64,000 nucleotides of DNA from Deltaproteobacteria bacterium (GCA_003647275.1 QMMN01000007.1:6830-70829); one strand, 5' to 3'; positions 5,762-53,520 are shown, counted from the stretch's first letter. Notes: a model not told the origin generated them from the sequence alone. Program-made: numbers and translations.

Positions 5762-5944
5762 TCATGCATTCTCGCTGCCCTACAATACAAAGCATGTCTC
5801 AGCGCCCGCTTGTGCAGTTCAATGGGGCTTGCTGCAAAGCATCTAATCGTTTACATCTAAACATCTGCCATCAAACATCTCTGCGTTATTTATTGCAAAC
5901 AATCGTTATGCCCTTCTTAGTAAATAAGCGACCTTTGCAAGAAA

Positions 5945-7864
5945 CTATCTGTCCACAAAGGTCCTGTGCCATAATTCCAAAATAAGAAGCGACCAGAGTC
6001 GATCTCCGTGGTCAACCCCCCCCGCCATGTGTTCACGCACAAGGGTCCTGATGGCATCTTTCTTAAAGTACCCGCGGGATAGGGCCTGCTGGCCCAACAA
6101 AAGGTCCGCGGCATACGACTTCAGCTCATTTCGAAACCAGTAGCCAAGGGGAACACCAAAGCCCATCTTGGGCCGCTTCACGATCTTATGAGGGAGAAAG
6201 GGTTTTGCGACCTTTTTCAGGATATATTTTTTGGTCCAATGCCTCAGTCTTAAATGGACCGGGATCCTGGCCACATACTCCATCAGGTGATGGTCCAAAA
6301 AGGGTGATCTGGCCTCCAAGGAATTGGCCATAGAGGCGATATCAGCCTTAACCAGCAAATCATTAGCCAAATAAGAACGCATGTCAAAATCAAGGATCTT
6401 TTCAACTGGGTCATGAGCCGTGCTTTGTTCAAAAAGCGTCAAGATGACCTGGTAGGCATCCTTGTCCGAGACCGTGGTCCTAAAACCATTTGTGTAAATG
6501 TCGGATTTCAACCTCTTGTCAAAATGGCACACCCACTTGATATAATCCTCACCACAGGGGTATGCCATCCCTTCCAGGAAACGCTTCACGCGCCTGACTC
6601 GGTTGTGGATATCCGGGGATTCAGGCCACATTGTCAGCAGTTTCAATAGAAACGGGTTTAAGAATTTTAAGCTTTTTCGGTAGTATCTTCCATACTTGTA
6701 GGCTACATATCGATCATACCCAAAGAAGTTCTCGTCTCCGCCATCCCCGTTCAATGCCACAGTCACGTAATCTCTGGTCAGTCTTGAGACGCAATAGGTG
6801 GGAATAATCGAGGCGTCAGCAAAGGGTTCGCCCAACTGAAACACCAGATCTGGGAGTATATCCAGTGCATTTGGCCTTACCTTAAATTCGTGATGTTCGG
6901 TGCAGTACTTCCCAGCCACGACACGGGCATATGGTAATTCATTGTACGAACTCTCCTCAAAGCCGATTGAAAAGGTCCTGATCGGTTCTGGATGAATATC
7001 GCTCATGAGCGCCACGATAAGGCTGGAGTCTATGCCTCCGCTCAAAAAGGCCCCGAGAGGAACATCGCTAATCATCCTTAATTCGATCGATTCTCGCAGC
7101 TTCTCAAGTAAAGCCTCTGCGATCTCGGCCTCGCCGAGGTCCTCTAACTTGTTGTTATAGTCAAGCGCCCAGTACCGTTTTACCAACAGATTCCCCTTTT
7201 CCCATACGAGGAAGTGGGCGGGTGGAAGCTTTTTAATCGCTTTGAATGCAGTCAAGGGGGCAGGCACATACTGGTAGGTCAAGTAGAGATCTATGGCTGT
7301 ATGATCAATATCTCTTGGAACCGATGTATCCGCCAGAAGGGCACAAAGACTCGAGGCAAAGCTGAGGCTGCCATCTTTTCCAAGCGAATAAAACAGAGGC
7401 TTTTGCCCCAAACGGTCTCTGGCCAAAAAGAGTCTGTTTTTCTCTTCATCCCAAATCGCAAAGGCAAACATACCCCTGAGTCTGCTTAGGAACTCGGTCG
7501 AAAATTCTTGATATGCATAAAGAACAATTTCAGTATCTGTTCTGCTCTTGAATCTATAGCCCCTTGCTATCAGTTCTCGTCTGAGATCTTCGAAATTATA
7601 TACCTCGCCATTATAAACAATCCAAATCTTCCCGTCGCTGTTGCACATGGGCTGGCGGCCTGCCCGTGATAAATCAATGATACTCAACCTTCGATGACCC
7701 AGACCGACTGACACGCCGCCGCCCCTTTTTGACGTTGAACCCTGTTTGATATAGAGCCCATCATCATCCGGCCCTCTGTGTCTCATGGTCTCCCGCATGG
7801 ATAAGAGGATTTCCGGGTCGATCGGCTTCCCCTCGGGGTTGATATGCCCACAAATGCCGCACAT
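5945..7864 (-). CDS. asnB: Asparagine synthase (glutamine-hydrolysing)
   Basis: N-terminal MCGICG (Ntn Cys), a HRGPDD block, and the PP-loop SGGIDSS. 639 aa. Confidence 0.9.
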   Translation of the reverse strand: MCGICGHINPEGKPIDPEILLSMRETMRHRGPDDDGLYIKQGSTSKRGGGVSVGLGHRRLSIIDLSRAGRQPMCNSDGKIWIVYNGEVYNFEDLRRELIARGYRFKSRTDTEIVLYAYQEFSTEFLSRLRGMFAFAIWDEEKNRLFLARDRLGQKPLFYSLGKDGSLSFASSLCALLADTSVPRDIDHTAIDLYLTYQYVPAPLTAFKAIKKLPPAHFLVWEKGNLLVKRYWALDYNNKLEDLGEAEIAEALLEKLRESIELRMISDVPLGAFLSGGIDSSLIVALMSDIHPEPIRTFSIGFEESSYNELPYARVVAGKYCTEHHEFKVRPNALDILPDLVFQLGEPFADASIIPTYCVSRLTRDYVTVALNGDGGDENFFGYDRYVAYKYGRYYRKSLKFLNPFLLKLLTMWPESPDIHNRVRRVKRFLEGMAYPCGEDYIKWVCHFDKRLKSDIYTNGFRTTVSDKDAYQVILTLFEQSTAHDPVEKILDFDMRSYLANDLLVKADIASMANSLEARSPFLDHHLMEYVARIPVHLRLRHWTKKYILKKVAKPFLPHKIVKRPKMGFGVPLGYWFRNELKSYAADLLLGQQALSRGYFKKDAIRTLVREHMAGGVDHGDRLWSLLILELWHRTFVDR

Positions 7865-42513: not shown

Positions 42514-44265
42514 TTACTGTAAAGGGAGACGCAGGATAAAAGTTGTGCCTTTTCTTAATTCGCTCTGGCATTCAATAGTCCCGCGATGAGCCTCTACAAT
42601 GGTCTTGACGATCGACAACCCGAGGCCAGTACCCTTTTTGCCTTTGGTTGTAAAGAACGGGTCGAATATCTGTTCTAAGATATCCGGCCCGATCCCAGGT
42701 CCTGTATCTTCTATCCTGACCACAAGGTGCTCTCCCTCAATCCTTCCTTCAATACTGATGTTTCCTGAATCAGTCATCGCCTCCAGGCTGTTTTTGACCA
42801 AGTTATTCAAGACCTGGTACATAAGGCGGGGGTCTACATTGACGGGGGGCAAGTCAGCGGGCCAGTTGAGTTCAAGGTGGATTCCTCTTTTTTCAGTATC
42901 AGGCTGATGGATCAATAAGACCTCTCGAATCATTGCATCGATTGATCTCCTTTCTAAGCGCAGTTCCGGTTTTTTGGCAAATTGCAAGAAATTGTGGATA
43001 AACTCCCTGACCCGCGCTGATTCCTTTTCCAGTATCTTCAGTGCATTTTTCCCCGTCGGGCTGAGAGCTTCGCCCTTCAGAGTAGCCTGGATCATTCCTA
43101 CATTGTTGAGAAGGTTGCCCACCTCATGGGTTACCTTGCTGGAGGTCGTGCCAAGGACGGCTAAGTTCTTGGCGTGGGCAAGTTCCCTGGCTGTCTCTAC
43201 TTCCCGCCTTATAAATTTCTTAAGCGAAGCTGTCATCTCATTAAAGGCCAGACCTAGATCGCCAATCTCGTCCTGCGAGTCAACAGACACCTTCTGATCT
43301 AAGTCGCCCTGGCCTATTCGTTGAACCTGGCGATGCAGGTTGTGAATCGGAGTTAAGAAGCGTTTTACCCAATTCCACCCGAGGAGGATAGCTGCAAGGC
43401 AGATTAAACAGGTTATAAAGGCTGCCCGATAAATATTCTGGTATAGATATGCATAGATCTCCGGATAGGTCTGACTCAAGACAATAACCCAATCAAAGCC
43501 CGGGATATAGTAGCCCAAACAGTAGAACTTGGTTTCGTCCCTTTCTTCGATCCATTCGATCGGCGTATCTGATTCTCGGAGTTCTTTGAGTATGTCCGGT
43601 TTTTTTGCCGGAGGGGTTGTTACGACCCGGTCAATCTTCCGGTGTGCGATAAATCGTCCCGATAGATCCATGATATACACCTGACCCGTGTGACCTATAG
43701 CAATTCCCTCCAGTACATCCCAGACAGACTTGAGGTTTAATTCGCCCCAGAGGACCTCTTTTACCTCGCCTAAGCGTAATACAGGGACGGCTATATGAAT
43801 GTAAGGGATATTCTCTTTGGTCAGCATGACACCAGAAATGGCGTTTTGGCCCATAAGGACTTTCTTAAAGATCTCGCTTTGACTAAAGGTAATGTCATCC
43901 CCTTCCCGACCGGTAGATACGATCTCGTTTCCTTCTATGGAAATCAAAGAAACAGACATAAATTCAACAGCCATATGATTGAAAGCTGTCAGGGCCATCT
44001 CTTTTTGCCACCGATCCAGTTTGGTGGCAGCCATCACCAAGGCAAGGCCTTCCAAACCCTTTTGGGCATGTTCCATGTAAAGGCGAATCTCGCCGGCCGA
44101 GCTTTTGATGATATTTCTGTAATCCTGGTTTATCGTTTTCAGGAAATAATTATAGCTTGTCCAGGAAAGGATCACGCTGGTAATGATTATAGATAGGATC
44201 AGGAGGGGGAGGATAAAAAGGAGGAACTTATAGATTAATTTTGTCTTTTTGATTCTATTCATCAA
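42514..44265 (-). CDS. Sensor histidine kinase (TM, large extracytoplasmic sensor domain, TM, HAMP, HisKA, HATPase)
   Basis: Two hydrophobic segments flank about 240 aa (a Cache-like position, not verified). HAMP-like LHRQVQRIGQGDLDQKV, H-box VTHEVGNLLNN, N-box NLVKNSLEAM, G-boxes EDTGPGI and GTGLGLSIV. Confidence 0.85.
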   Translation of the reverse strand: MMNRIKKTKLIYKFLLFILPLLILSIIITSVILSWTSYNYFLKTINQDYRNIIKSSAGEIRLYMEHAQKGLEGLALVMAATKLDRWQKEMALTAFNHMAVEFMSVSLISIEGNEIVSTGREGDDITFSQSEIFKKVLMGQNAISGVMLTKENIPYIHIAVPVLRLGEVKEVLWGELNLKSVWDVLEGIAIGHTGQVYIMDLSGRFIAHRKIDRVVTTPPAKKPDILKELRESDTPIEWIEERDETKFYCLGYYIPGFDWVIVLSQTYPEIYAYLYQNIYRAAFITCLICLAAILLGWNWVKRFLTPIHNLHRQVQRIGQGDLDQKVSVDSQDEIGDLGLAFNEMTASLKKFIRREVETARELAHAKNLAVLGTTSSKVTHEVGNLLNNVGMIQATLKGEALSPTGKNALKILEKESARVREFIHNFLQFAKKPELRLERRSIDAMIREVLLIHQPDTEKRGIHLELNWPADLPPVNVDPRLMYQVLNNLVKNSLEAMTDSGNISIEGRIEGEHLVVRIEDTGPGIGPDILEQIFDPFFTTKGKKGTGLGLSIVKTIVEAHRGTIECQSELRKGTTFILRLPLQ

Positions 44266-44489: not shown

Positions 44490-45668
44490 TTATCTCTTTG
44501 CCAGAAGGGATGCCGAAACCATAATAAAAGAGCCGGTCAATAGAAGGGATTGGGGGCCCCATATCTTTAATACGAGGGCGCTGCTTAATATGGTCCCTAA
44601 ATAACATGCGCCTCTGTAAGTTGATAACAATGATATGGTTTTCCCTATATGGGTCCTCGGGCTGTTTTGCTGGATGAGGCTTTCCAAAAAGATATGTATT
44701 AAGGTAAAGCCGCAACCAAACAGGATCATCAGCAAGGCAACCTGGATGTAGGTCGTGAGTTGACCAAGGATGGCCATGGCGCCCCCGAGGATCAAAAAGG
44801 TGAAGGAGAGGATGGTTTGCTGCCTGAAGGTTGATGAACATCTGGGCAACAGGAAGGTAGCCAGGCAGGAACCAGCCTGAAATCCAGACATGATCAATCC
44901 CCAATCAGCAATATTCCTCCCAAAATGTATCTTAAAAAAAATGGGAAGACCAAGATTTAACACCCCGCCTCCCAGGAGGACAAACCCGAAGATCATAAAA
45001 TAGGCCTTGAGGTCATGATTGTCTGTAAATGGCTCTCTGTACTTAAAAAGCAAAGGCCTTAGACCTTTACCTCGCCTCAGACAATGGGTCGATTGTTCAG
45101 CGATCTGACCAAATTTCGGAAGTCCGTAAATGGCGCACACCGAGAGTGTGAAAAGAAGCCCGGCCAGCCCTAAAGCGACCCCCTGACCTGTTTTCAGGAC
45201 AATCCATCCGATGAGCCATGGACCGAATATCCGCCCTACAAGAGATACCCTTTCATTAAGTGAGTTAAAAGAGATAAGCTCATCTTTGGGTATCAACATG
45301 GGGGTCAGGGAAAGTCGCCCGATATGGAAAAAGAGAGAACCAATCATAAAGCAAAGATAGGCAGGAAAGATGACCCAGAGGGATGCTTTAAAGACAAGGA
45401 TCCCGACCAAAAGGCATTTGCTTAGATTGACGATGATGAGCCACCTTCTTCCCCCGACCCGATCAATCCAGAAGCCCGCAAAAGGGCTCAGGAAGATAGA
45501 AGGTGCCTGCTCAATGACGCACATCACCAGGAGATTGGATAAGGCACGCTCACCCTTAAAAATCAGCAAGTCGAGCAGGGTTAATTGGACGAACTGGTTT
45601 CCCAGATCTGACAGAAGATCAGCCGATATGATCAGGTACTTGGGGTGAATCCGGTCAATCCCTTTCAC
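44490..45668 (-). CDS. MFS transporter (putative exporter of the adjacent peptide locus)
   Basis: 392 aa, hydrophobic throughout with about 11-12 predicted helices. Its GTG start overlaps the corrected rSAM stop as GTGA. Confidence 0.75.
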   Translation of the reverse strand: MKGIDRIHPKYLIISADLLSDLGNQFVQLTLLDLLIFKGERALSNLLVMCVIEQAPSIFLSPFAGFWIDRVGGRRWLIIVNLSKCLLVGILVFKASLWVIFPAYLCFMIGSLFFHIGRLSLTPMLIPKDELISFNSLNERVSLVGRIFGPWLIGWIVLKTGQGVALGLAGLLFTLSVCAIYGLPKFGQIAEQSTHCLRRGKGLRPLLFKYREPFTDNHDLKAYFMIFGFVLLGGGVLNLGLPIFFKIHFGRNIADWGLIMSGFQAGSCLATFLLPRCSSTFRQQTILSFTFLILGGAMAILGQLTTYIQVALLMILFGCGFTLIHIFLESLIQQNSPRTHIGKTISLLSTYRGACYLGTILSSALVLKIWGPQSLLLTGSFIMVSASLLAKR

Positions 45669-46980
45669 GCTGCTTTTTTCAGGCGGATATTCTCTCCCTG
45701 AGACAAAACCGCAGAGGCCCTCTGTCTGATGTAATCTTCAAGAAAAAAACGATAGGTATTGTAATGACAATCGACCCCGTTAAAATCCTTCTCATGAACC
45801 AGGGCCTGCATGCGGCACCCCCCATGCAGATGGGCAGAATGGGGCATTTGTTGAGACATCTGTCCGGTAATCTTCGCTTCAGTAGTTGGGATTCTGAGAC
45901 AAAGTCGATCCCTTTGGTGACGTGTCCATAGGCCATTTCCCCACCTTGAAGGGATGGGCATGGGATAATCGAGCCATCTGTGTCAAAGACAAACCGGGCT
46001 CGAAAATCAGCCATACAGGTGTTGGAGGGGGCCTCACGATCCTGCAGATAGCCCCGTTTTTCAGCCTCCTGCATCAGGTATTGAAGTATTTTAGGATCGC
46101 CCATCCCGGAATCATAGGGGCTTTCTCCTCTTCTGGCCAGGATGGGGGTGAAGGTGATGTTTTCAATAGCAATATGGCGCTCGCCCATATCATCCAGCAT
46201 CTCTGGAATGCTCAGAAAATCAAGTGCCCCGCTGTCGTATTGACATTCAATGTTGATGGGAATCAGACCGGAAACAGCCTGTAGATTCTCCATGATCAGG
46301 TCATAGGTCTTCCCATTATTCTTGGAGGGCCGCAAAAAATCGTGAACAGGGGCCGGCCCGGCCAGGCTGACCCGAATGCCTGTGAGTCCTACCTCTTTCA
46401 TGCCCGAGATCATGGATGGCCTGAGGAGCGTGCCGTTGGTGGTAATGGTAAAGCCATATTCGATCCCCCTGCCCAGGCAGTAATAAAACCGCCTGGCAGC
46501 ACTTTCTAAGATGATCTCAGAATTAAGGAGCGGCTCACCCCCAAGGTAGTCGTCTTCAACCCTCTGAGGGTTCTTTTCCTGGATGATCTCAATGTAGAAC
46601 CGGTCCATGGCCCGGGCTGTGTCAGGGGACATCTCCCTGGCTTCAGGGTCCAGGATGCAGTAGCGACATCGATTATTACATTTCCGGGTGACCAGGACCT
46701 TGGATCTTAATGTGCTGAAGTCATGGACGTATTGTTGCTTCCAGTTCTCAAACACAATGGTTTCGTCCACGCCCTCCTTGACCAGGAATCCCTGGTCACA
46801 GAGCATATCGATGGCAGCCGGATCGGCTGGTGCGACGGGATCGCTCAGGATATAAGACCAGGTCTTTTCAGGGATCAGGATAAAGGCCCCTGTCATGGTC
46901 TGATAGAGGGCGATGAGCGCTTCTCGGCTGTTTTCAACAGCAATATCCACCGTGAATCTGGATTTCTTAAAAAAAGCCAT
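45665..46980 (-). CDS. Radical SAM/SPASM peptide-maturase-like enzyme, interrupted by an apparent 1-nt frameshift in a G6 run (ORF-track pieces 45679-46980 and 45665-45961)
   Basis: CNNRCRYC (CxxxCxxC) at aa 101-108, after a ~100-aa N-terminal extension (RRE-like position). CX13GX4C (CMADFRARFVFDTDGSIIPC). After a frame shift at the C-run 45818-45823, the C-terminus reads CLNKCPILPICMGGCRMQALVHEKDFNGVDCHYNTYRFFLEDY, which completes the SPASM cysteine pattern. Confidence 0.8.
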
Positions 46981-46995
46981 GATGTGATCTCCTTT

Positions 46996-47035
46996 AAAAA
47001 CGGCCCCCCGGGCAAACCAGGTCTGCCCGGGGGCC
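46996..47035 (-). terminator. Intrinsic terminator/attenuator hairpin between the precursor peptide and the rSAM gene
   Basis: The minus strand reads GGCCCCCGGGCA-gacctggtt-TGCCCGGGGGGCC (12 bp, one bulged G), followed by GTTTTT and then the rSAM RBS AAAGGAG. Confidence 0.55.
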
Positions 47036-47051: not shown

Positions 47052-47141
47052 TTAGTTGCGGGAGCTTGGAGCATTTCCACAGCACATGAGTCCTGACTTT
47101 TTGACCCTGTATGTGCCCTTGTTGATCACAATCAGTTTCAT
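47052..47141 (-). CDS. Putative RiPP precursor peptide, 29 aa: MKLIVINKGTYRVKKSGLMCCGNAPSSRN
   Basis: Absent from the ORF track because it is below the size cutoff. ATG at 47141 is preceded by AAGGAGG with a 9-nt spacer, and TAA is at 47052-47054. It lies 71 nt upstream of, and co-oriented with, the rSAM/SPASM gene. The C-terminal half contains a Cys-Cys pair. Confidence 0.6.
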   Translation of the reverse strand: MKLIVINKGTYRVKKSGLMCCGNAPSSRN

Positions 47142-47402
47142 GATCGCACCCCTCCTTTCTTGAGTGATTTCAGTCATAACATTAGCCAATGCGCGCCTGG
47201 CTGGTGTTTTTTCATTATCAGGATGTGTGCCATGATTTGAGATCTGTGAGGGGATTGTCTATCTCATTGTTATTGTAAGGAAAGAGGATATGGATCAAGG
47301 GATGAAGAGGGCTTTTGAAAGAGTAAGGGTTTGAACTTTTTGAGGGTGAGTTTGAACAGCGTGGATATAAGTGTTAACTTGGCGCGTCCTTGAAACTGTG
47401 AG

Positions 47403-47526: not shown

Positions 47527-49101
47527 CTAACCCGATTTAAGCGAGGCATATCTGAGGCGGTAGATCCCTTCGTGGGTGAGAGAAAACGGGAAAGGCAATT
47601 TAAACCGTTTGGACATCACATCAATGGCTGTTTTATGAAACAAAAACGTGCCAGGCTGAAGCGCTTGGATCCGGGCATCGATCTTATAAAAAAGCGCTTT
47701 TTGCTTGAATGGGTCTTTTTCATCAAGGGCCTGACAGATCAGGCGGGTCACCTCAGGATCTTCAAATGAACCAGCCTCAGACCTTTTGGGGCGATCAAAA
47801 GACCATGACTGTTTCAAGAATTCAGGATCCCGGTAAACGCCTCTCAACTCTGTTAGCACGGCCTGAAACTGATTGTTTCTATAGTATCTTCTTTTAAGCT
47901 CCTCAAAAGGAACGGATTGCAGGCGCACCTTGATCCCGAGATCATTCAGGCAAATCTGCAGGTATTGGGCGACCTTTTTTTCAATCTGGCTCTCTTTAAA
48001 GACAAGGATAGTAAATTCAAACCCCTTTCCACCCTTTTCAAGATAGCGGCCCTCATGATCATAAGACCAGCCTGCTTGTTTCAGGAGCGCCAGTCCCTTT
48101 TTGGGGTTGTATGGTATGGGTTGGACCTCGGGGTTGTGATAAGGGGAGTCCACCCCCATGGGGCCGACTGCAATCCTCCCAAAGCCCCTTAAGATCTTCT
48201 TTACGATGTATGCCCTGTCAATGGCATAAGAAAAGGCGAGTCGAACCCTTGGATCAGAAAAAAGGGGATCGGTTGTATTGTAGAGGAGGATCGTGTACCA
48301 ACGCAGAGGGTAGAGATCAAAATAGTATCTTTTTCCATACTGCTTCATCATCTCATAGTTTTTGGGGGAAATCTCCTGTGCAATATCTGTCTCCCCTGAA
48401 AGGACCCTTGTCCATGACTTTTCTTTGTCCGGCTGAAAATAGAAGACAACTCGATCTATGGAAGGGCGGCCATGAAAATAATCTTTATTCGCCTCAAGGC
48501 AGACTTCCTTTTCTCCTTTTCTGTATTTGAATCTAAACGGGCCAGAGCCAATGGGGTGATTGTAATAATCGATCTTATCTTCATGGGGTTGAGGAAGAAT
48601 CTCCATGTCCCAGATCTTTTGAAGAAATTCAGGATCGTTTCTCTTAAGACCAATACAAATAACCGTATCTGACAAAGGAAAGATCCGGTCTATTAGAGAA
48701 AACAAAGCAGGGCGATTGTTCTTTAGCACCCCCTCCAATGCATACTGGACATCCCTTGAAGTCACAGGGTGTTTGTTGTGGAACAGGGCGTCTTTTCTGA
48801 GATGGATCGTCCAGGTAAAACTCTCGGAATCATAGGTCCATTTGAGGGCCAGATCCGGTTCGAGTTCTCCGTTGGCATTTGGGACAAAAAGATAACTGTA
48901 CAACAAAGGGAAGATATGGTTTGAACCGGAGGCATAAACATATGTGGGATTCAAAGAGGTAAAAGGGGCGCTCACATCATAGCGAAGGACATTTTCATTT
49001 TTGTTTTTTTCCCTGGCAGGAGGGGTGCCAGGTTGTTCACAGGAAAGAATAAAACCGGTAAAGAAAATAAATACTAGGATTGAACTCAGATATCGAAGCA
49101 T
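47527..49101 (-). CDS. ABC-type family-5 (peptide/nickel/opine, OppA/DppA-like) substrate-binding lipoprotein, with no adjacent permease or ATPase
   Basis: 524 aa. Signal peptide with a possible lipobox (FILSC) and family-5-like blocks (LRYDVSAPFTSLNP, GSGPFRFK). No cognate membrane components lie nearby. Confidence 0.8.
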   Translation of the reverse strand: MLRYLSSILVFIFFTGFILSCEQPGTPPAREKNKNENVLRYDVSAPFTSLNPTYVYASGSNHIFPLLYSYLFVPNANGELEPDLALKWTYDSESFTWTIHLRKDALFHNKHPVTSRDVQYALEGVLKNNRPALFSLIDRIFPLSDTVICIGLKRNDPEFLQKIWDMEILPQPHEDKIDYYNHPIGSGPFRFKYRKGEKEVCLEANKDYFHGRPSIDRVVFYFQPDKEKSWTRVLSGETDIAQEISPKNYEMMKQYGKRYYFDLYPLRWYTILLYNTTDPLFSDPRVRLAFSYAIDRAYIVKKILRGFGRIAVGPMGVDSPYHNPEVQPIPYNPKKGLALLKQAGWSYDHEGRYLEKGGKGFEFTILVFKESQIEKKVAQYLQICLNDLGIKVRLQSVPFEELKRRYYRNNQFQAVLTELRGVYRDPEFLKQSWSFDRPKRSEAGSFEDPEVTRLICQALDEKDPFKQKALFYKIDARIQALQPGTFLFHKTAIDVMSKRFKLPFPFSLTHEGIYRLRYASLKSG

Positions 49102-49104
49102 TTA

Positions 49105-50241
49105 TTATGATAGAAAAACCTCAGAGAGTCTGTATCTGGACTGATTTGCCTTTTTTTTATTATGCACACAGATATGGTTCTTTTTCAATATAGAAAGATA
49201 TTTGCCTGCTGTTCCGTATTTATTCCTGTCGGATTTGGCCTTGTCACTCAGGAACCTTGCAAACTCGAGCCGGGAAAATGGTCTTTGGCTGGTCTTTAAA
49301 AGAAATTCATGGATGGTCTCTATGGTGGTACACTTCAAGGTGCGATGCCATTGTTTTGCTGCCCCGCCATTATCAGATATGGTCGCTCCCTTTAGCACCG
49401 CTAAGAGCTCGTCACTCTTAACGCTGGCGTAAGCCTCATATTCTCTCCCTGACCCGTTTGATATTTCTTCGGGAAGGTCTTGAATGGTTATCTCCCTTTG
49501 TTTGGTTAGGATAACCGCCCGTTCGATGATGTTTTCCAATTCCCTGATATTTCCGGGAAATGAATAGTTCATCAGGACCTCAAGGGCCTTGTTTGATATC
49601 CCCAGAATATCTTTTTTGTTTTCACAGGCATATTTTGCCACAAAATGATCAACCAGGGGCGGGATATCCTCTTTATGGTCTCTCAAAGGGGGAAGCTGAA
49701 TCTGGATAACATTCAGACGATAAAACAGATCCTCCCTGAACCAACCTTCCTGAACGCCTTCCTTCAGGTCTTTATTGGCGGCCGCGATGAAGCGTACATC
49801 CACCTTGATGGTCCTGGTGCCTCCGACCCGTTCAAATGCCATCTCCTGGAGTACCCTCAGTAATTTGACCTGAAGGGATAGAGACATCACAGAAACCTCA
49901 TCCAGGAAGAGGGTGCCCTTATCCGCCAGCTCGAATCGGCCTTTTTTCATGGCAATAGCCCCGGTAAAAGCCCCTTTTTCGTGTCCAAACATCTCGCTTT
50001 CACACAGGTTATCAGCCATGGCCGAGCAGTTGACCGCAATAAAGGGTTTGTCTCTCCGTGGGCTATGATCATGAATGGCCCTGGCAATCAACTCTTTTCC
50101 TGTTCCACTTTCCCCGACAATCAGTACCGTGGCCCTGGTGGGGGCAACCATTTCGATGAGTTCATAGATCTTTAACATGGGTCCGCTTTTCCCCACCATA
50201 TTATGAAAGTGGGGTTGTTGGATAGCTTCTTGCGGTAACAT
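49105..50241 (-). CDS. Sigma-54-dependent activator consisting of an AAA+ domain with an atypical C-terminus (no receiver or sensor domain)
   Basis: Starts about 15 aa before the AAA+ core. [14 protein letters not shown] (HEKGAFTGA), and FPGNIRELEN. The last ~120 aa lack the usual AA-LG-SR-TLYRK Fis-type HTH signature. Confidence 0.8.
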   Translation of the reverse strand: MLPQEAIQQPHFHNMVGKSGPMLKIYELIEMVAPTRATVLIVGESGTGKELIARAIHDHSPRRDKPFIAVNCSAMADNLCESEMFGHEKGAFTGAIAMKKGRFELADKGTLFLDEVSVMSLSLQVKLLRVLQEMAFERVGGTRTIKVDVRFIAAANKDLKEGVQEGWFREDLFYRLNVIQIQLPPLRDHKEDIPPLVDHFVAKYACENKKDILGISNKALEVLMNYSFPGNIRELENIIERAVILTKQREITIQDLPEEISNGSGREYEAYASVKSDELLAVLKGATISDNGGAAKQWHRTLKCTTIETIHEFLLKTSQRPFSRLEFARFLSDKAKSDRNKYGTAGKYLSILKKNHICVHNKKKANQSRYRLSEVFLS

Positions 50242-50336: not shown

Positions 50337-52211
50337 TTAAAACTCAAAGTTTACCCCGCCCTCAATCCAGCGATCAGGTTGAGGAAAGACGTGGCGGTAG
50401 ATGTAGGTAGAGTTGGTAAGATTGTGTACAGCACCAAAGAGAGTTAGGTCGCCGTATCGGTCCGGAAAAGGGGGTTTGACCTGAAGGAGATAGTCAAAGA
50501 TAAAGACGCGATCTCGGGTCTCGGGGTAGCTGGAATAGTTATAGACATATTTTCCGACAATGGAATGGGTCATCCATTGATGTGTGTAGGAGGCCGAGAC
50601 ATTATAAAGGGTCCTGGGGATATCCTGGATCACCTTGTCGGTCTCTTCATCTCTCACATCCATAAAGCTCCCGCCGAATGAGAGGGTCAACCCAAAGCCA
50701 AAGGTGGCCCGGATGTTGCCTTCTACGCCCTGCCGGGTGACCTTATCGATATTTTCATACTTTTTGGTGTCCGGGTTATAGCGGATGAGGTCCTTGATGT
50801 CCGCCCGAAAAAGGTTCAGTTCGAGCCTCAGGAACCTGAAGGGTCGCACCTCGCCGCCAAGCTGATAGTTTATCCCGGCCTCTGGTTTCAGGTCCTTGTT
50901 GCCATACTGGGGATCGTTTACCCAGGCACCGGGTGGGGCTGAAAAGCCTTTAGCGACCTGGGCTCGGATAAGGGCATCCACGCCTGAAATACGATAGACC
51001 ATTCCGCCCGAAGGGCTGACCTCAGAGCCAAAATCATGGTTATCATCATAGCGAGCCCCGGCATTAAAAGAGAACGCTTCCAGGTTGAAGGTATCATTGG
51101 CATAAATGGCCCAGTTTCTGGAGTTATACTCTTTGGCATAAGAGCTGAAATCGTATCGGCCCCAATCCCCGTCAAACCCCAGATTAAACCTGTTTAAATC
51201 ATTGGTGTAGTAACTCAGCCGGGCACTGCCCCCCCAGGTCTCCTCTAAGTAATGGAAATAGTTTTCCCTGTGATCAGGATAAACATCGTCAATCCAGTTA
51301 AAGAATCGATGATGCCGTCCCTCAAGAGTCAGATCAAGATTTTCAACAGGCGAGGTCTCAAAGAGAAGGCGTTGGTAGGTGCGTCTGCGATAGAGGTCAT
51401 CCCAGAAATCCGGATAATTAAGAACGGGATCTGCATTGCGGCCCACATCATAGCTGTAGGCAAAGTTAAGGCGACTTGTCTCACCCAGTTCATGGTTGAT
51501 TTTGGCATATACGGCCTCCTGTTCGTACCCGGTATGCTCGATGAACCCGTTGCTCTCCTCATGGGTAAGGGAGAGTAGGAACCCAAAACGATCCTTCGTA
51601 CCGCTGAAGGTTCCGCGGTTCTTTAAGGTTTTAAACTCTCCATAAGAGGTGCGGAGATCGGCCACAAACGGCTTTTTGGGGTCGGGTTCTTTGGTGATGA
51701 TGTTGATCAAACCACCCAGGGAAGAACCCCAGGCCGAGGAGGCCGCCCCCTTGTAGATCTCGATCCGCTCGATCGTATCAATGGGAATATAAGAAAGGTC
51801 AGCCATGGGATTGGCCAGTTGGTTGAGGGGGATCCCATCCTGATAGATGGCCACATGCCGGACGTCAGAACCCTGGATGGTAGCCGTGGACTGGCTCCCC
51901 AATCCACCGTTAAACTCCACGTAGATACCTGGTACATACTGGAGCACCTCGGCCGCATTGGAGGCCGGCATCTTTTCTATATCATCCCTGGTAATAACCG
52001 TGATGTTTGCAGCGACCTCCTGTCTGGGGGTCTCCAGGCGGGTGGCAGTCACCACGATTTCTTCCAATTTATATTCATGGACTTCGGGTCCGGAAGGCAT
52101 ATCTGCTGCCCAAGCTTTCAAAAAGAACATAACCCAAAGAACAGAGCTAACAATAAGAACTACCTCAGTTTTCGGTTGTTTCATCCAACTCGTAATTCTT
52201 AATTTTTTCAA
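50337..52211 (-). CDS. TonB-dependent outer-membrane receptor (small, BtuB/CirA-sized)
   Basis: Signal peptide ending AWA, TonB-box/plug EEIVVTATR, and a plug domain. The C-terminal beta-barrel ends in GGVNFEF (terminal aromatic). The likely start is the internal Met at 52184. Confidence 0.85.
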   Translation of the reverse strand: MKKLRITSWMKQPKTEVVLIVSSVLWVMFFLKAWAADMPSGPEVHEYKLEEIVVTATRLETPRQEVAANITVITRDDIEKMPASNAAEVLQYVPGIYVEFNGGLGSQSTATIQGSDVRHVAIYQDGIPLNQLANPMADLSYIPIDTIERIEIYKGAASSAWGSSLGGLINIITKEPDPKKPFVADLRTSYGEFKTLKNRGTFSGTKDRFGFLLSLTHEESNGFIEHTGYEQEAVYAKINHELGETSRLNFAYSYDVGRNADPVLNYPDFWDDLYRRRTYQRLLFETSPVENLDLTLEGRHHRFFNWIDDVYPDHRENYFHYLEETWGGSARLSYYTNDLNRFNLGFDGDWGRYDFSSYAKEYNSRNWAIYANDTFNLEAFSFNAGARYDDNHDFGSEVSPSGGMVYRISGVDALIRAQVAKGFSAPPGAWVNDPQYGNKDLKPEAGINYQLGGEVRPFRFLRLELNLFRADIKDLIRYNPDTKKYENIDKVTRQGVEGNIRATFGFGLTLSFGGSFMDVRDEETDKVIQDIPRTLYNVSASYTHQWMTHSIVGKYVYNYSSYPETRDRVFIFDYLLQVKPPFPDRYGDLTLFGAVHNLTNSTYIYRHVFPQPDRWIEGGVNFEF

Positions 52212-53520
52212 TAAGGGTTTTGCGGCTTATACCCAATAAATCAGCCGCTTTGGTCTTATTGTTTTTTGTACGTCTCAAGGCCAGACCGATAAAAAACCTC
52301 TCCACATCCCTCAAGTCCAGATCAGATATTTTCTCATACTCTCCTTTCCCAAATGGAAGGTGTTTGGTGGTGATCATATTATCCTGGCAGGTTATCACGG
52401 CCCTCTCTATGACGTTTATCAGTTCCCGGACATTGCCCGGCCAATCATACTCCCTGAGGGATAACATGGCATTCGTAGAAATACCGGTTATTGGTCGACG
52501 ATACGCCTCACTGAACCTTTTAAGATAGAACTCGGCTATAAGAGGGATGTCCTCCTTTCTATCCCTCAAGGGTAGGATTTCAATCGTATAGATGTTTAAA
52601 CGGTAAAAAAGATCCTGACGAAAGCGACCACAGGCAACCTCTGCTTCCAGGTTGCGGTTGGTGGCCACGAGGAGGCGAAAGTCCGAATATATGGGGTAGA
52701 TTCCTCCCACGCGCATGAAGGTCTTGGTCTCCACGATCCTGAGGAGTTTAGACTGAAAAAAGGGCGGAGCCTCGCTGATCTCATCCAGAAAAAGAATCCC
52801 CTTGTGAGCCACCTCGAAAAGACCTATCTTTCGATCTATCGCACCAGTAAAGGCCCCTTTTTCATGGCCGAACAACTCACTTTCCAAAACCCCGAGGGCA
52901 AATTCATTGCAACTTACTGCAAAAAACGGCTTATCGCGCCTGTCGCTTAGATTATGGATGGCCCGGGCAACCAGCTCCTTCCCTGTACCGGTCTCCCCGC
53001 AGATAAGGACAGTCACAGGAAGATCAGCGACCTCCTCTATGGATCTAGCGACCTTCTTGATTCCCTCTGATTGTCCTATGATGGTCACCGGCGTTTTTAT
53101 CTGGAGGGACCTTTCTCTACGAAGCGAGGCGAGCTCTTTCAATATCTCCCTCTTGGCCAAGGCCTCCCGAACGGTTATCCAAAATAGATCTAATTTGTCG
53201 TTGATCGGCTTTTCAAAATAATGGAAGGCCCCGCGCTTGACCGCCTGGATAGCCCCTTCTGTAGAGCCGAAGGCCGTAATCAGGATAACGGGGATATCAG
53301 GATACAGGTCCTGAACCCTGCTAAAAAGCTCGGTCCCGCTCATCTCAGGCATCTGCACATCTGAGATAATCAGGTCTACAGGCTCCTTGTTCAGGACCTC
53401 GAGCGCCTTTTTGGCCGATGTGAGAGGAACGATATCAAAGCCCTGTGCCCCTTCTAAAGAGAGGAAAAGTTCCAGGAAGGCTTCATTATCGTCTATCAAC
53501 AGAATCTTGGGCTTGCTCAT
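52165..53520 (-). CDS. NtrC-family sigma-54-dependent response regulator (REC-AAA+-Fis HTH)
   Basis: REC (ILLIDDN...DLIISDVQMPEMSG), GETGTGKE, GAFTGA, and C-terminal KAADLLGISRKTLIEKIK. Confidence 0.9.
   Translation of the reverse strand: MSKPKILLIDDNEAFLELFLSLEGAQGFDIVPLTSAKKALEVLNKEPVDLIISDVQMPEMSGTELFSRVQDLYPDIPVILITAFGSTEGAIQAVKRGAFHYFEKPINDKLDLFWITVREALAKREILKELASLRRERSLQIKTPVTIIGQSEGIKKVARSIEEVADLPVTVLICGETGTGKELVARAIHNLSDRRDKPFFAVSCNEFALGVLESELFGHEKGAFTGAIDRKIGLFEVAHKGILFLDEISEAPPFFQSKLLRIVETKTFMRVGGIYPIYSDFRLLVATNRNLEAEVACGRFRQDLFYRLNIYTIEILPLRDRKEDIPLIAEFYLKRFSEAYRRPITGISTNAMLSLREYDWPGNVRELINVIERAVITCQDNMITTKHLPFGKGEYEKISDLDLRDVERFFIGLALRRTKNNKTKAADLLGISRKTLIEKIKNYELDETTEN

Follow-up and report, generated by a model that had tools for sequence, protein, structure and literature searches.

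The DNA analysed here is a 64,000-nt stretch from a Deltaproteobacteria bacterium (the window). Its minus strand carries genes in the order sigma-54 response regulator, TonB-dependent receptor, sigma-54 enhancer-binding protein, family-5 binding protein, short peptide ORF, radical SAM (rSAM) enzyme, MFS transporter, and dCache kinase. These genes and the elements that accompany the peptide ORF are as follows.

53520..52165, minus strand: NtrC-type sigma-54-dependent response regulator (receiver-AAA+-HTH_8; domain matches)
52211..50337, minus strand: TonB-dependent outer-membrane receptor of BtuB size (domain matches)
50241..49105, minus strand: sigma-54 enhancer-binding AAA+ protein without a receiver domain, 378 aa (domain matches)
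49101..47527, minus strand: periplasmic family-5 solute-binding protein, NikA/AppA/Opp-like (domain and structure matches)
47232..47217, minus strand: sigma-54-type −24/−12 element, TGGCAC-ACATC-CTGAT, 91 nt upstream of the peptide ATG
47157..47151, minus strand: Shine-Dalgarno sequence AAGGAGG, 9 nt 5' of the peptide ATG
47141..47052, minus strand: putative precursor peptide gene, 29 sense codons plus TAA (47054..47052), ATG at 47141, product MKLIVINKGTYRVKKSGLMCCGNAPSSRN
47033..47005, minus strand: GC-rich hairpin with a 13 bp stem, dG about −29 kcal/mol, between the peptide stop codon and the rSAM ribosome-binding site
46980..45665, minus strand: putative rSAM/SPASM peptide maturase with an N-terminal RRE-like domain (Radical_SAM and SPASM matches, alignment, predicted model)
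45668..44490, minus strand: MFS transporter (EntS/Mef-like), putative exporter, whose start overlaps the in-frame end of the rSAM gene
44265..42514, minus strand: sensor histidine kinase (dCache-HAMP-HisKA-HATPase; domain matches)

Direct reading of the minus strand bore out, in every detail, the preliminary description of an AAGGAGG-N9-ATG start that opens a 29-codon ORF ending in TAA, and the coordinates agree with its placement 71 nt upstream of the rSAM/SPASM gene on the same strand (last base of the peptide stop codon at 47052, rSAM ATG at 46980). The product MKLIVINKGTYRVKKSGLMCCGNAPSSRN joins a leader-like beta-strand, KLIVINKGTY, to a core, CC-GNA-P-SS-R-N; no second copy of the peptide was found within the 64,000-nt window. 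Chance alone could supply 29 codons behind a Shine-Dalgarno sequence; it is the conservation across loci that lifts this ORF above chance.

The rSAM protein has hundreds of near relatives in Desulfobacterales/Thermodesulfobacteriota MAGs, and we took 28 orthologous genome loci with rSAM identities of 40–81%. A short in-frame ORF of 26–37 codons lies ahead of the orthologous rSAM gene in 27 of the 28, two of these ORFs starting with GTG, and a purine-rich GGAGG/GGGGG box occupies the equivalent position in 28/28. Scanning metagenomes, we found a short ORF ahead of the orthologous rSAM gene in 30 of 31 loci, and the sole locus without one has just 56 nt of upstream sequence; a comparable ORF was present at none of the 19 unrelated rSAM loci (22–27% identity) in the same scan. 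Over genome and metagenome loci, the peptide ORF stands beside the orthologous rSAM gene, on the same strand, in 57/59. The homologous loci that the preliminary description had proposed to check thus do contain a conserved short ORF at this position. It had also named the pattern expected of a regulatory RNA, namely conserved DNA without a conserved frame, and the opposite was seen: frame, length, and key residues are kept across 58 loci while the DNA diverges and peptide identity to the window copy falls to about 28%. In the alignment of the 28 genome-derived peptides, G9, C20, C21, and P25 never vary and R28 hardly does, and two blocks are conserved, an N-terminal hydrophobic strand with a Gly-aromatic pair and a C-terminal CC-x2-3-P-x-x-R. 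The mean pN is 0.36 and the mean pS 0.71, with pN below pS in 99.5% of 378 pairs, and the invariant Gly, Cys, Cys, and Pro are written with 4, 2, 2, and 4 codons, respectively, that is, with every synonymous codon. Taken together, these sequence comparisons indicate that the 29 codons encode a protein and are under purifying selection.

Individual loci show variation within the core. On three contigs that are 98.5% identical to the window (L082–L084; the peptide is at 5840–5929 of L082), the peptides carry CCNGAP where the window has CCGNAP (...CCNGAPSSRN vs. ...CCGNAPSSRN), a non-synonymous swap with the remainder of the peptide identical; since GN and NG are exchanged between such close strains, the residues between CC and P appear free to vary. 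Rare core variants occur in the metagenomes: CCGFAAFSRQ, with Ala in place of the otherwise invariant Pro (L107/L108), and CCAKWCPSSRN, with a third Cys adjoining the Pro (L094).

The region upstream of the peptide gene contains a sigma-54-type element whose −24 half is perfect and whose −12 half is non-canonical (TGA, not TGC). A strict canonical sigma-54 promoter (GG...GC) was not found in the window, only this variant with TGA at −12, which is co-linear with the canonical sites of its relatives. The pattern GGCA[CT]-N5-[CT]TG[CA] lies 72–105 nt upstream of the ATG in 17/28 loci, compared to 0.09 loci expected from shuffles, and relaxed rules add three more (17–20 of 28); the canonical form TGGCAT-N5-TTGCA occurs in L010, L011, L014–L017, L019, and L023. 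Other elements were noted nearby. A GCGCGC core with CCAG/TGG half-sites (47191–47196, minus strand, in CCAGCCAGGCGCGCATTGGC at about 47203..47184) sits just downstream of the sigma-54 element and could be an operator or a 5'-UTR hairpin; it recurs 42–63 nt upstream of the peptide ATG in 8/28 loci, against 0.16 expected from shuffles. About 40 nt upstream of the −24 box is a (G)CAATAACAA-type element, ccttacaataacaatgagatagac (about 47257–47280, minus strand), which recurs in L001, L012, L021, L027, and L028 and may be an enhancer-binding-protein or IHF site. A candidate Fur box, TGATAATGA, at the −12 region was rejected because the best matches to the 19-bp consensus reach 11.4 of 19 positions, against 10.9 in shuffles.

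Downstream of the peptide stop codon, the GC-rich hairpin is followed by a T-run to about 46995 (GCCGTTTTTA, within 47033..46995), and it was flagged by a terminator scan. A hairpin with a dG of −17 kcal/mol or lower follows the peptide stop codon in 27/28 loci (mean −24.5 vs. −11.1 in shuffles). The T-run is present in some loci only and missing from many. The stem sequences differ from locus to locus, so what is maintained is the structure. The hairpin probably serves as a partial terminator or an mRNA stabiliser, and either function would raise the ratio of peptide to enzyme.

The gene set of the window recurs as a cassette across the orthologous loci, with local rearrangements only. Among 29 genome loci (L001–L029), the family-5 binding protein is found upstream of the peptide in 25, the MFS transporter downstream of the rSAM gene in 19, and the histidine kinase in 26. 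The binding protein is nearest to NikA and to Opp/App-type binders of peptides and metal-chelate complexes. The cassette genes include no ABC permease, ATPase, peptidase (a dedicated leader peptidase included), or conserved metal enzyme. The TonB receptor ORF in its longest form (TTG at 52211) begins inside the 3' end of the response-regulator gene (overlap 52165–52211); its true start is probably an ATG near 52184, because the orthologues are called at 615 aa. The 378-aa sigma-54 activator has an AAA+ core and lid, no recognisable HTH_8, and a C-terminal region of ~110 residues without a Pfam match. The system is also carried by a cultured host, Desulfosarcina ovata subsp. sediminis (AP021876.1, L088), in which the peptide gene (887–974, product MKKIIVEKGTFQVRIKGMSCCSGGPNMRA) stays beside the family-5 binding-protein gene, 5 kb from the rSAM gene (6001–7296). 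The insertion between them holds a peptidase M56/M48-like gene and others, and the rSAM gene is still preceded by a sigma-54 element and a hairpin remnant. The metallochaperone genes cobW and hypA lie just downstream of the kinase gene in this strain.

We then examined the rSAM enzyme. Its SPASM match (TIGR04085) scores 31 bits against a cut-off of 27, and its ten top-scoring NCBIfam families are all peptide maturases. The best of them is TIGR04280, the geopeptide radical SAM maturase, at 174 bits vs. a cut-off of 400; the nearest models also include TIGR04463, CefB, Clo7bot, CcpM, PapB, and QhpD. None of the thioether-synthase equivalogs was reached (PapB 83 bits vs. a cut-off of 340, SCIFF 54 vs. 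425, QhpD 66 vs. 453, and RumMC 42 vs. 720). The alignment of homologues contains CxxxCxxC and seven further invariant or near-invariant Cys, including the SPASM Cys. An AlphaFold (AF2) model of an intact orthologue (pLDDT 80.7) consists of N-terminal strands and helices (residues 4–85), a barrel, and SPASM, and over its full length it best matches, within the PDB, the thioether synthase CteB (E about 1e-17), followed by anSME, TigE, SuiB, ChlB, and SkfB. CteB is also the top sequence match among solved structures, at an identity of only about 20%. The N-terminal strand/helix domain aligns full-length to CteB in the predicted fold and has no match to the Pfam PqqD/RRE models; we infer from the model that it is an RRE-like domain.

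The window copy of this gene lacks 1 nt in a C-run near 45823 (about 45816–45832, plus strand CACCCCCCATG) relative to the three 98.5%-identical contigs. The deletion shifts the frame after ...ICMGG, so that the last two conserved SPASM cysteines are lost; the frameshifted ORF stops at 45679, and the remaining C-terminus is readable in an ORF at 45961..45665 (minus strand). Either the assembly is wrong in this homopolymer, or the gene is truly inactivated (a pseudogene), in which case the system may be inactive in the strain of the window.

An exhaustive search of 1.84 billion representatives gave 92 clusters at E<1e-30; cluster P0152, which is 29% identical to the window enzyme, scores 420 bits on TIGR04280, above the cut-off of 400. 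Our set of six geopeptide-type loci includes the locus beside P0152 (L081) and four loci beside proteins that NCBI names geopeptide maturase; the peptides of L079 and L080 match the precursor model TIGR04229 weakly. A small ORF lies directly upstream of the maturase gene in 6/6 geopeptide-type loci, and the peptides (MQEQIIVLDQGMDEAKVAIMGTCCVGKPSTPATAAPTK, MQERRVEILKKGVSPSQVAADASCCKSGPSPLRPPSPSPSR, MEELGIAVLEEGRDAQQVAEMAACCTQGPAALRPQPDE, ..KKIIVLAKPVTLKKIAAAAACCKTGPARMTTTDGK, MKVVRKGKSVKQVAALSDCCLGKPAGVK, and MKTQKIVVLTKAKKPEQLANSMACCKVGPGPASSA) each combine a hydrophobic strand with CC-x-x-[G/K]-P across a spacer of much the same length. In 5/6, a TonB receptor gene immediately precedes the peptide gene, and the window cassette has a TonB receptor as well. 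Three geopeptide-type peptides from outside Geobacter fare poorly on TIGR04229 (cut-off 30), two scoring 12–14 bits and one giving no match, and none of our 28 orthologous peptides matches this 22-position model at E≤10.

The two systems agree in a short precursor directly 5' of an rSAM/SPASM enzyme of the same architecture; in a peptide made up of a hydrophobic strand, about 10–12 residues, and CC-x-x-[G/A/K/S]-P, with an identical spacing from CC to P (here CC-G-N-A-P); and in an adjoining TonB-dependent receptor with kinase and binding-protein genes nearby. They differ in several respects. At 174 bits, the window enzyme falls short of the 400-bit cut-off, and it shares about 29% identity with a true member; the leader of the window family is basic, whereas that of geopeptides is acidic or neutral; the window family ends in P-x-x-R-x, whereas geopeptides carry a longer Pro/Ala/Ser tail; and the window family additionally conserves the family-5 binding protein, MFS exporter, dCache kinase, and sigma-54 regulators. 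The sequences thus point to a window system that operates like the geopeptide system and is evidently its homologue, and since both peptide and enzyme fail the family cut-offs, it is best described as a divergent sister branch, or distinct clade, of a class that TIGR04229 and TIGR04280 define in silico only ('hypoth_equivalog'). The preliminary description had stated that the CC core matches no class that can be named. That statement gives way in that CC-x-x-[G/K]-P peptides occur beside TIGR04280 maturases, and it stands in that the peptide and the enzyme fall below the cut-offs of that family. Judged by sequence, the kind of system, a geopeptide-like rSAM RiPP, is already known in silico, and what is new is a distinct clade in sulfate-reducing bacteria. 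The motif CC-x-x-G/A-P and the TonB receptor companion link the geopeptide class to a much broader set of systems.

These comparisons suggest, with a probability of about 0.8, that the ORF encodes a true, ribosomally made precursor peptide belonging to a geopeptide-like class of rSAM RiPPs, and the Cys-Cys peptide is most likely modified by the neighbouring rSAM enzyme. The proposal of an rSAM-dependent RiPP precursor in the preliminary description is supported by the adjacency of the two genes in orthologous loci, by the 0/19 result at unrelated rSAM loci, and by purifying selection, and the leader-like and core-like halves that it distinguished fit the two conserved blocks and the RRE-like domain of the enzyme. 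We envisage the following sequence of events. The sigma-54 promoter would drive transcription upon activation by the enhancer-binding proteins of the cassette, as suggested by the conserved element and the co-conserved regulators. The strong ribosome-binding site would give high translation of the 29-aa peptide, and the anatomy of the locus suggests that the hairpin 3' of the stop codon terminates or stabilises most transcripts, leaving more peptide than enzyme. The N-terminal strand, K-L-I-V-I-x-K-G-T-Y, might dock onto the RRE-like domain, given its predicted CteB-like fold. The enzyme would then modify the CC-x2-3-P-x-x-R segment, the likeliest products being one or two Cys thioether (sacti/ranthi-type) cross-links, a chemistry read across only from the nearest characterised relatives (CteB/PapB/QhpD). 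Judging from gene co-conservation, the MFS transporter would export the product, the TonB-dependent receptor and the family-5 binding protein would recapture it, and the binding protein, dCache kinase, and sigma-54 regulator would feed back on expression.

Two observations count against thioether cross-linking: the peptide has only two Cys (sactipeptides and ranthipeptides are multi-Cys), and the equivalog scores lie far below their cut-offs. The enzyme resembles CteB (SCIFF/thermocellin), PapB, QhpD, and SkfB in its RRE-like N-terminal domain, rSAM barrel, and SPASM domain with auxiliary clusters, and the peptides resemble theirs in a Cys-containing core. However, the window core has two adjacent Cys, whereas theirs have several spaced Cys with defined acceptors, and unlike theirs, the window system belongs to a Gram-negative host and includes a TonB receptor in its cassette. 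The action of an rSAM/SPASM enzyme on a vicinal Cys-Cys pair could be new chemistry.

As for the role of the product, the genes of the cassette suggest that it is likely a secreted and re-imported rSAM-modified peptide. From this context, we prefer to read it as a thiol/thioether peptide metallophore that would serve the capture of thiophilic trace metals where sulfide abounds. We favour this reading because of a methanobactin-like operon logic, the vicinal Cys, which as a pair bind soft metals well, and a binding protein whose nearest relatives are NikA and Opp/App binders. The methanobactin (Mbn) operons of methanotrophs encode the precursor MbnA, MbnB and MbnC, the TonB transporter MbnT, the family-5 binding protein MbnE, and the exporter MbnM. 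The likeness of the window system to these operons is confined to operon logic: both have a tiny Cys precursor, an importer of the TonB type, a family-5 binding protein standing alone, an efflux pump, and their own regulators. The window system departs from them in three ways: its maturase is an rSAM/SPASM enzyme, whereas Mbn relies on MbnBC (DUF692/MNIO), domains that occur in no cassette gene; its exporter is of the MFS type, whereas that of Mbn is MATE; and it is regulated through sigma-54 and a two-component system, whereas Mbn uses an ECF sigma factor. No methanobactin-named solved structure was among the matches of the family-5 binding protein (SBP5) at E≤1e-10. Nor did we find metal-specific signs: no Fur box stands above chance, and no metal enzyme is conserved in the cassette.

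Taken further, the window family and the geopeptides might together constitute one class of peptide metallophores, built by rSAM enzymes around a vicinal dithiol(ate) or thioether, an anaerobic counterpart of methanobactin; we offer this grouping as a tentative idea, with the odds somewhat against it. If it is true, sulfate reducers and Geobacter-type bacteria would capture Ni, Co, Cu, Zn, or Mo/W in sulfidic sediments, take the product up again via a dedicated TonB receptor, and auto-induce the system via the binding protein, kinase, and sigma-54 regulator. The export, uptake, and sensing genes in any case yield a testable idea, metallophore or signal, for anaerobes about whose acquisition of trace metals in sulfidic habitats little is understood.

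The main alternative, which we regard as rather doubtful, is that the same precursor and maturase produce a secreted signalling peptide (autoinducer) that would enter via the TonB receptor, be bound by the binding protein, and act on the dCache kinase and sigma-54 regulator in a positive feedback loop. The joint conservation of the kinase, sigma-54 response regulator, and sigma-54 promoter in the cassette speaks for it, and a lone binding protein without an ABC permease or ATPase partner fits sensing as well as uptake. Moreover, in geopeptide loci a kinase accompanies a binding protein that is not homologous to this one (PF04392), suggesting a binding-protein/kinase sensing module. However, TonB-dependent uptake and an EntS-like exporter typify metallophore or scarce-nutrient systems and, to our knowledge, are not hallmarks of known quorum-sensing systems. 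Variation is free between CC and P, and just the potential ligand atoms (CC) are fixed, a pattern that argues against a signal; siderophore systems, too, normally show feedback via their cognate receptor.

It is a good deal less probable that the peptide is the precursor of an intracellular cofactor, PQQ- or mycofactocin-like, with the rSAM enzyme cross-linking two core residues, the unit being excised, and the TonB receptor acting in salvage. PqqA/PqqE and MftA/MftC each pair a tiny-core precursor with an adjoining rSAM/SPASM enzyme that uses an RRE, and the window system shows the same pattern of a very short precursor, a very small conserved core, and an rSAM/SPASM enzyme with an RRE-like domain next to it; the PQQ TonB receptor PqqU is also among the weak NCBIfam matches. 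But the cassette conserves no dehydrogenase that depends on a cofactor, no peptidase for excision, and no other tailoring enzyme, and it lacks PqqB/C/F and Mft partner genes. The core is CC..P, whereas theirs are E..Y or a C-terminal VY, and a dedicated MFS exporter is conserved in the window family, as is an outer-membrane importer.

Two further readings deny the peptide a function. In the first, the ORF would encode an attenuation leader peptide, with ribosomes stalling at the tandem Cys codons to sense Cys-tRNA and thereby controlling read-through of the hairpin into the rSAM gene. In its favour is the classic attenuator arrangement of a short ORF with tandem identical codons and a GC-rich hairpin with a T-run before the operon. 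Yet purifying selection extends beyond Cys to G9, P25, R28, and the hydrophobic strand, and no antiterminator was found, as the 5' hairpin arm pairs with upstream sequence at a mean of −11.9 vs. −13.6 in shuffles and −25.1 for the hairpin itself. The T-run missing from many loci and the distance of the D. ovata peptide gene from its rSAM gene also count against attenuation, and we consider it very improbable. In the second, a chance ORF in a non-coding regulatory region (5' UTR or small RNA) would account for a frame of under 30 codons that gene callers skip, but this is scarcely credible given the retention of frame, length, and key residues in 58 loci amid synonymous codon turnover.

The peptide gene is effectively unannotated and almost never called. 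No gene is called at its position on the three 98.5%-identical public contigs, an exact look-up of 10 peptides in a collection of 15 billion proteins found one, without a name, and none of the 28 peptides matches a Pfam or NCBIfam model, even at E≤10. A full-text literature search found no publications on 'geopeptide' or TIGR04280, so the geopeptide class appears to be experimentally uncharacterised, and it found nothing relevant on related rSAM/RiPP/TonB/metallophore combinations. A peptide family conserved in many Desulfobacterales and other Thermodesulfobacteriota has thus been overlooked by gene callers and by Pfam and NCBIfam, and annotation pipelines and models could be widened to include it. 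A different short ORF with a repeated Cys-Cys motif (…GQCCINAGNCCINPT), 5' of a distant rSAM gene (25% identity; L130, about 1170–1301), may represent another unannotated CC-type precursor family.
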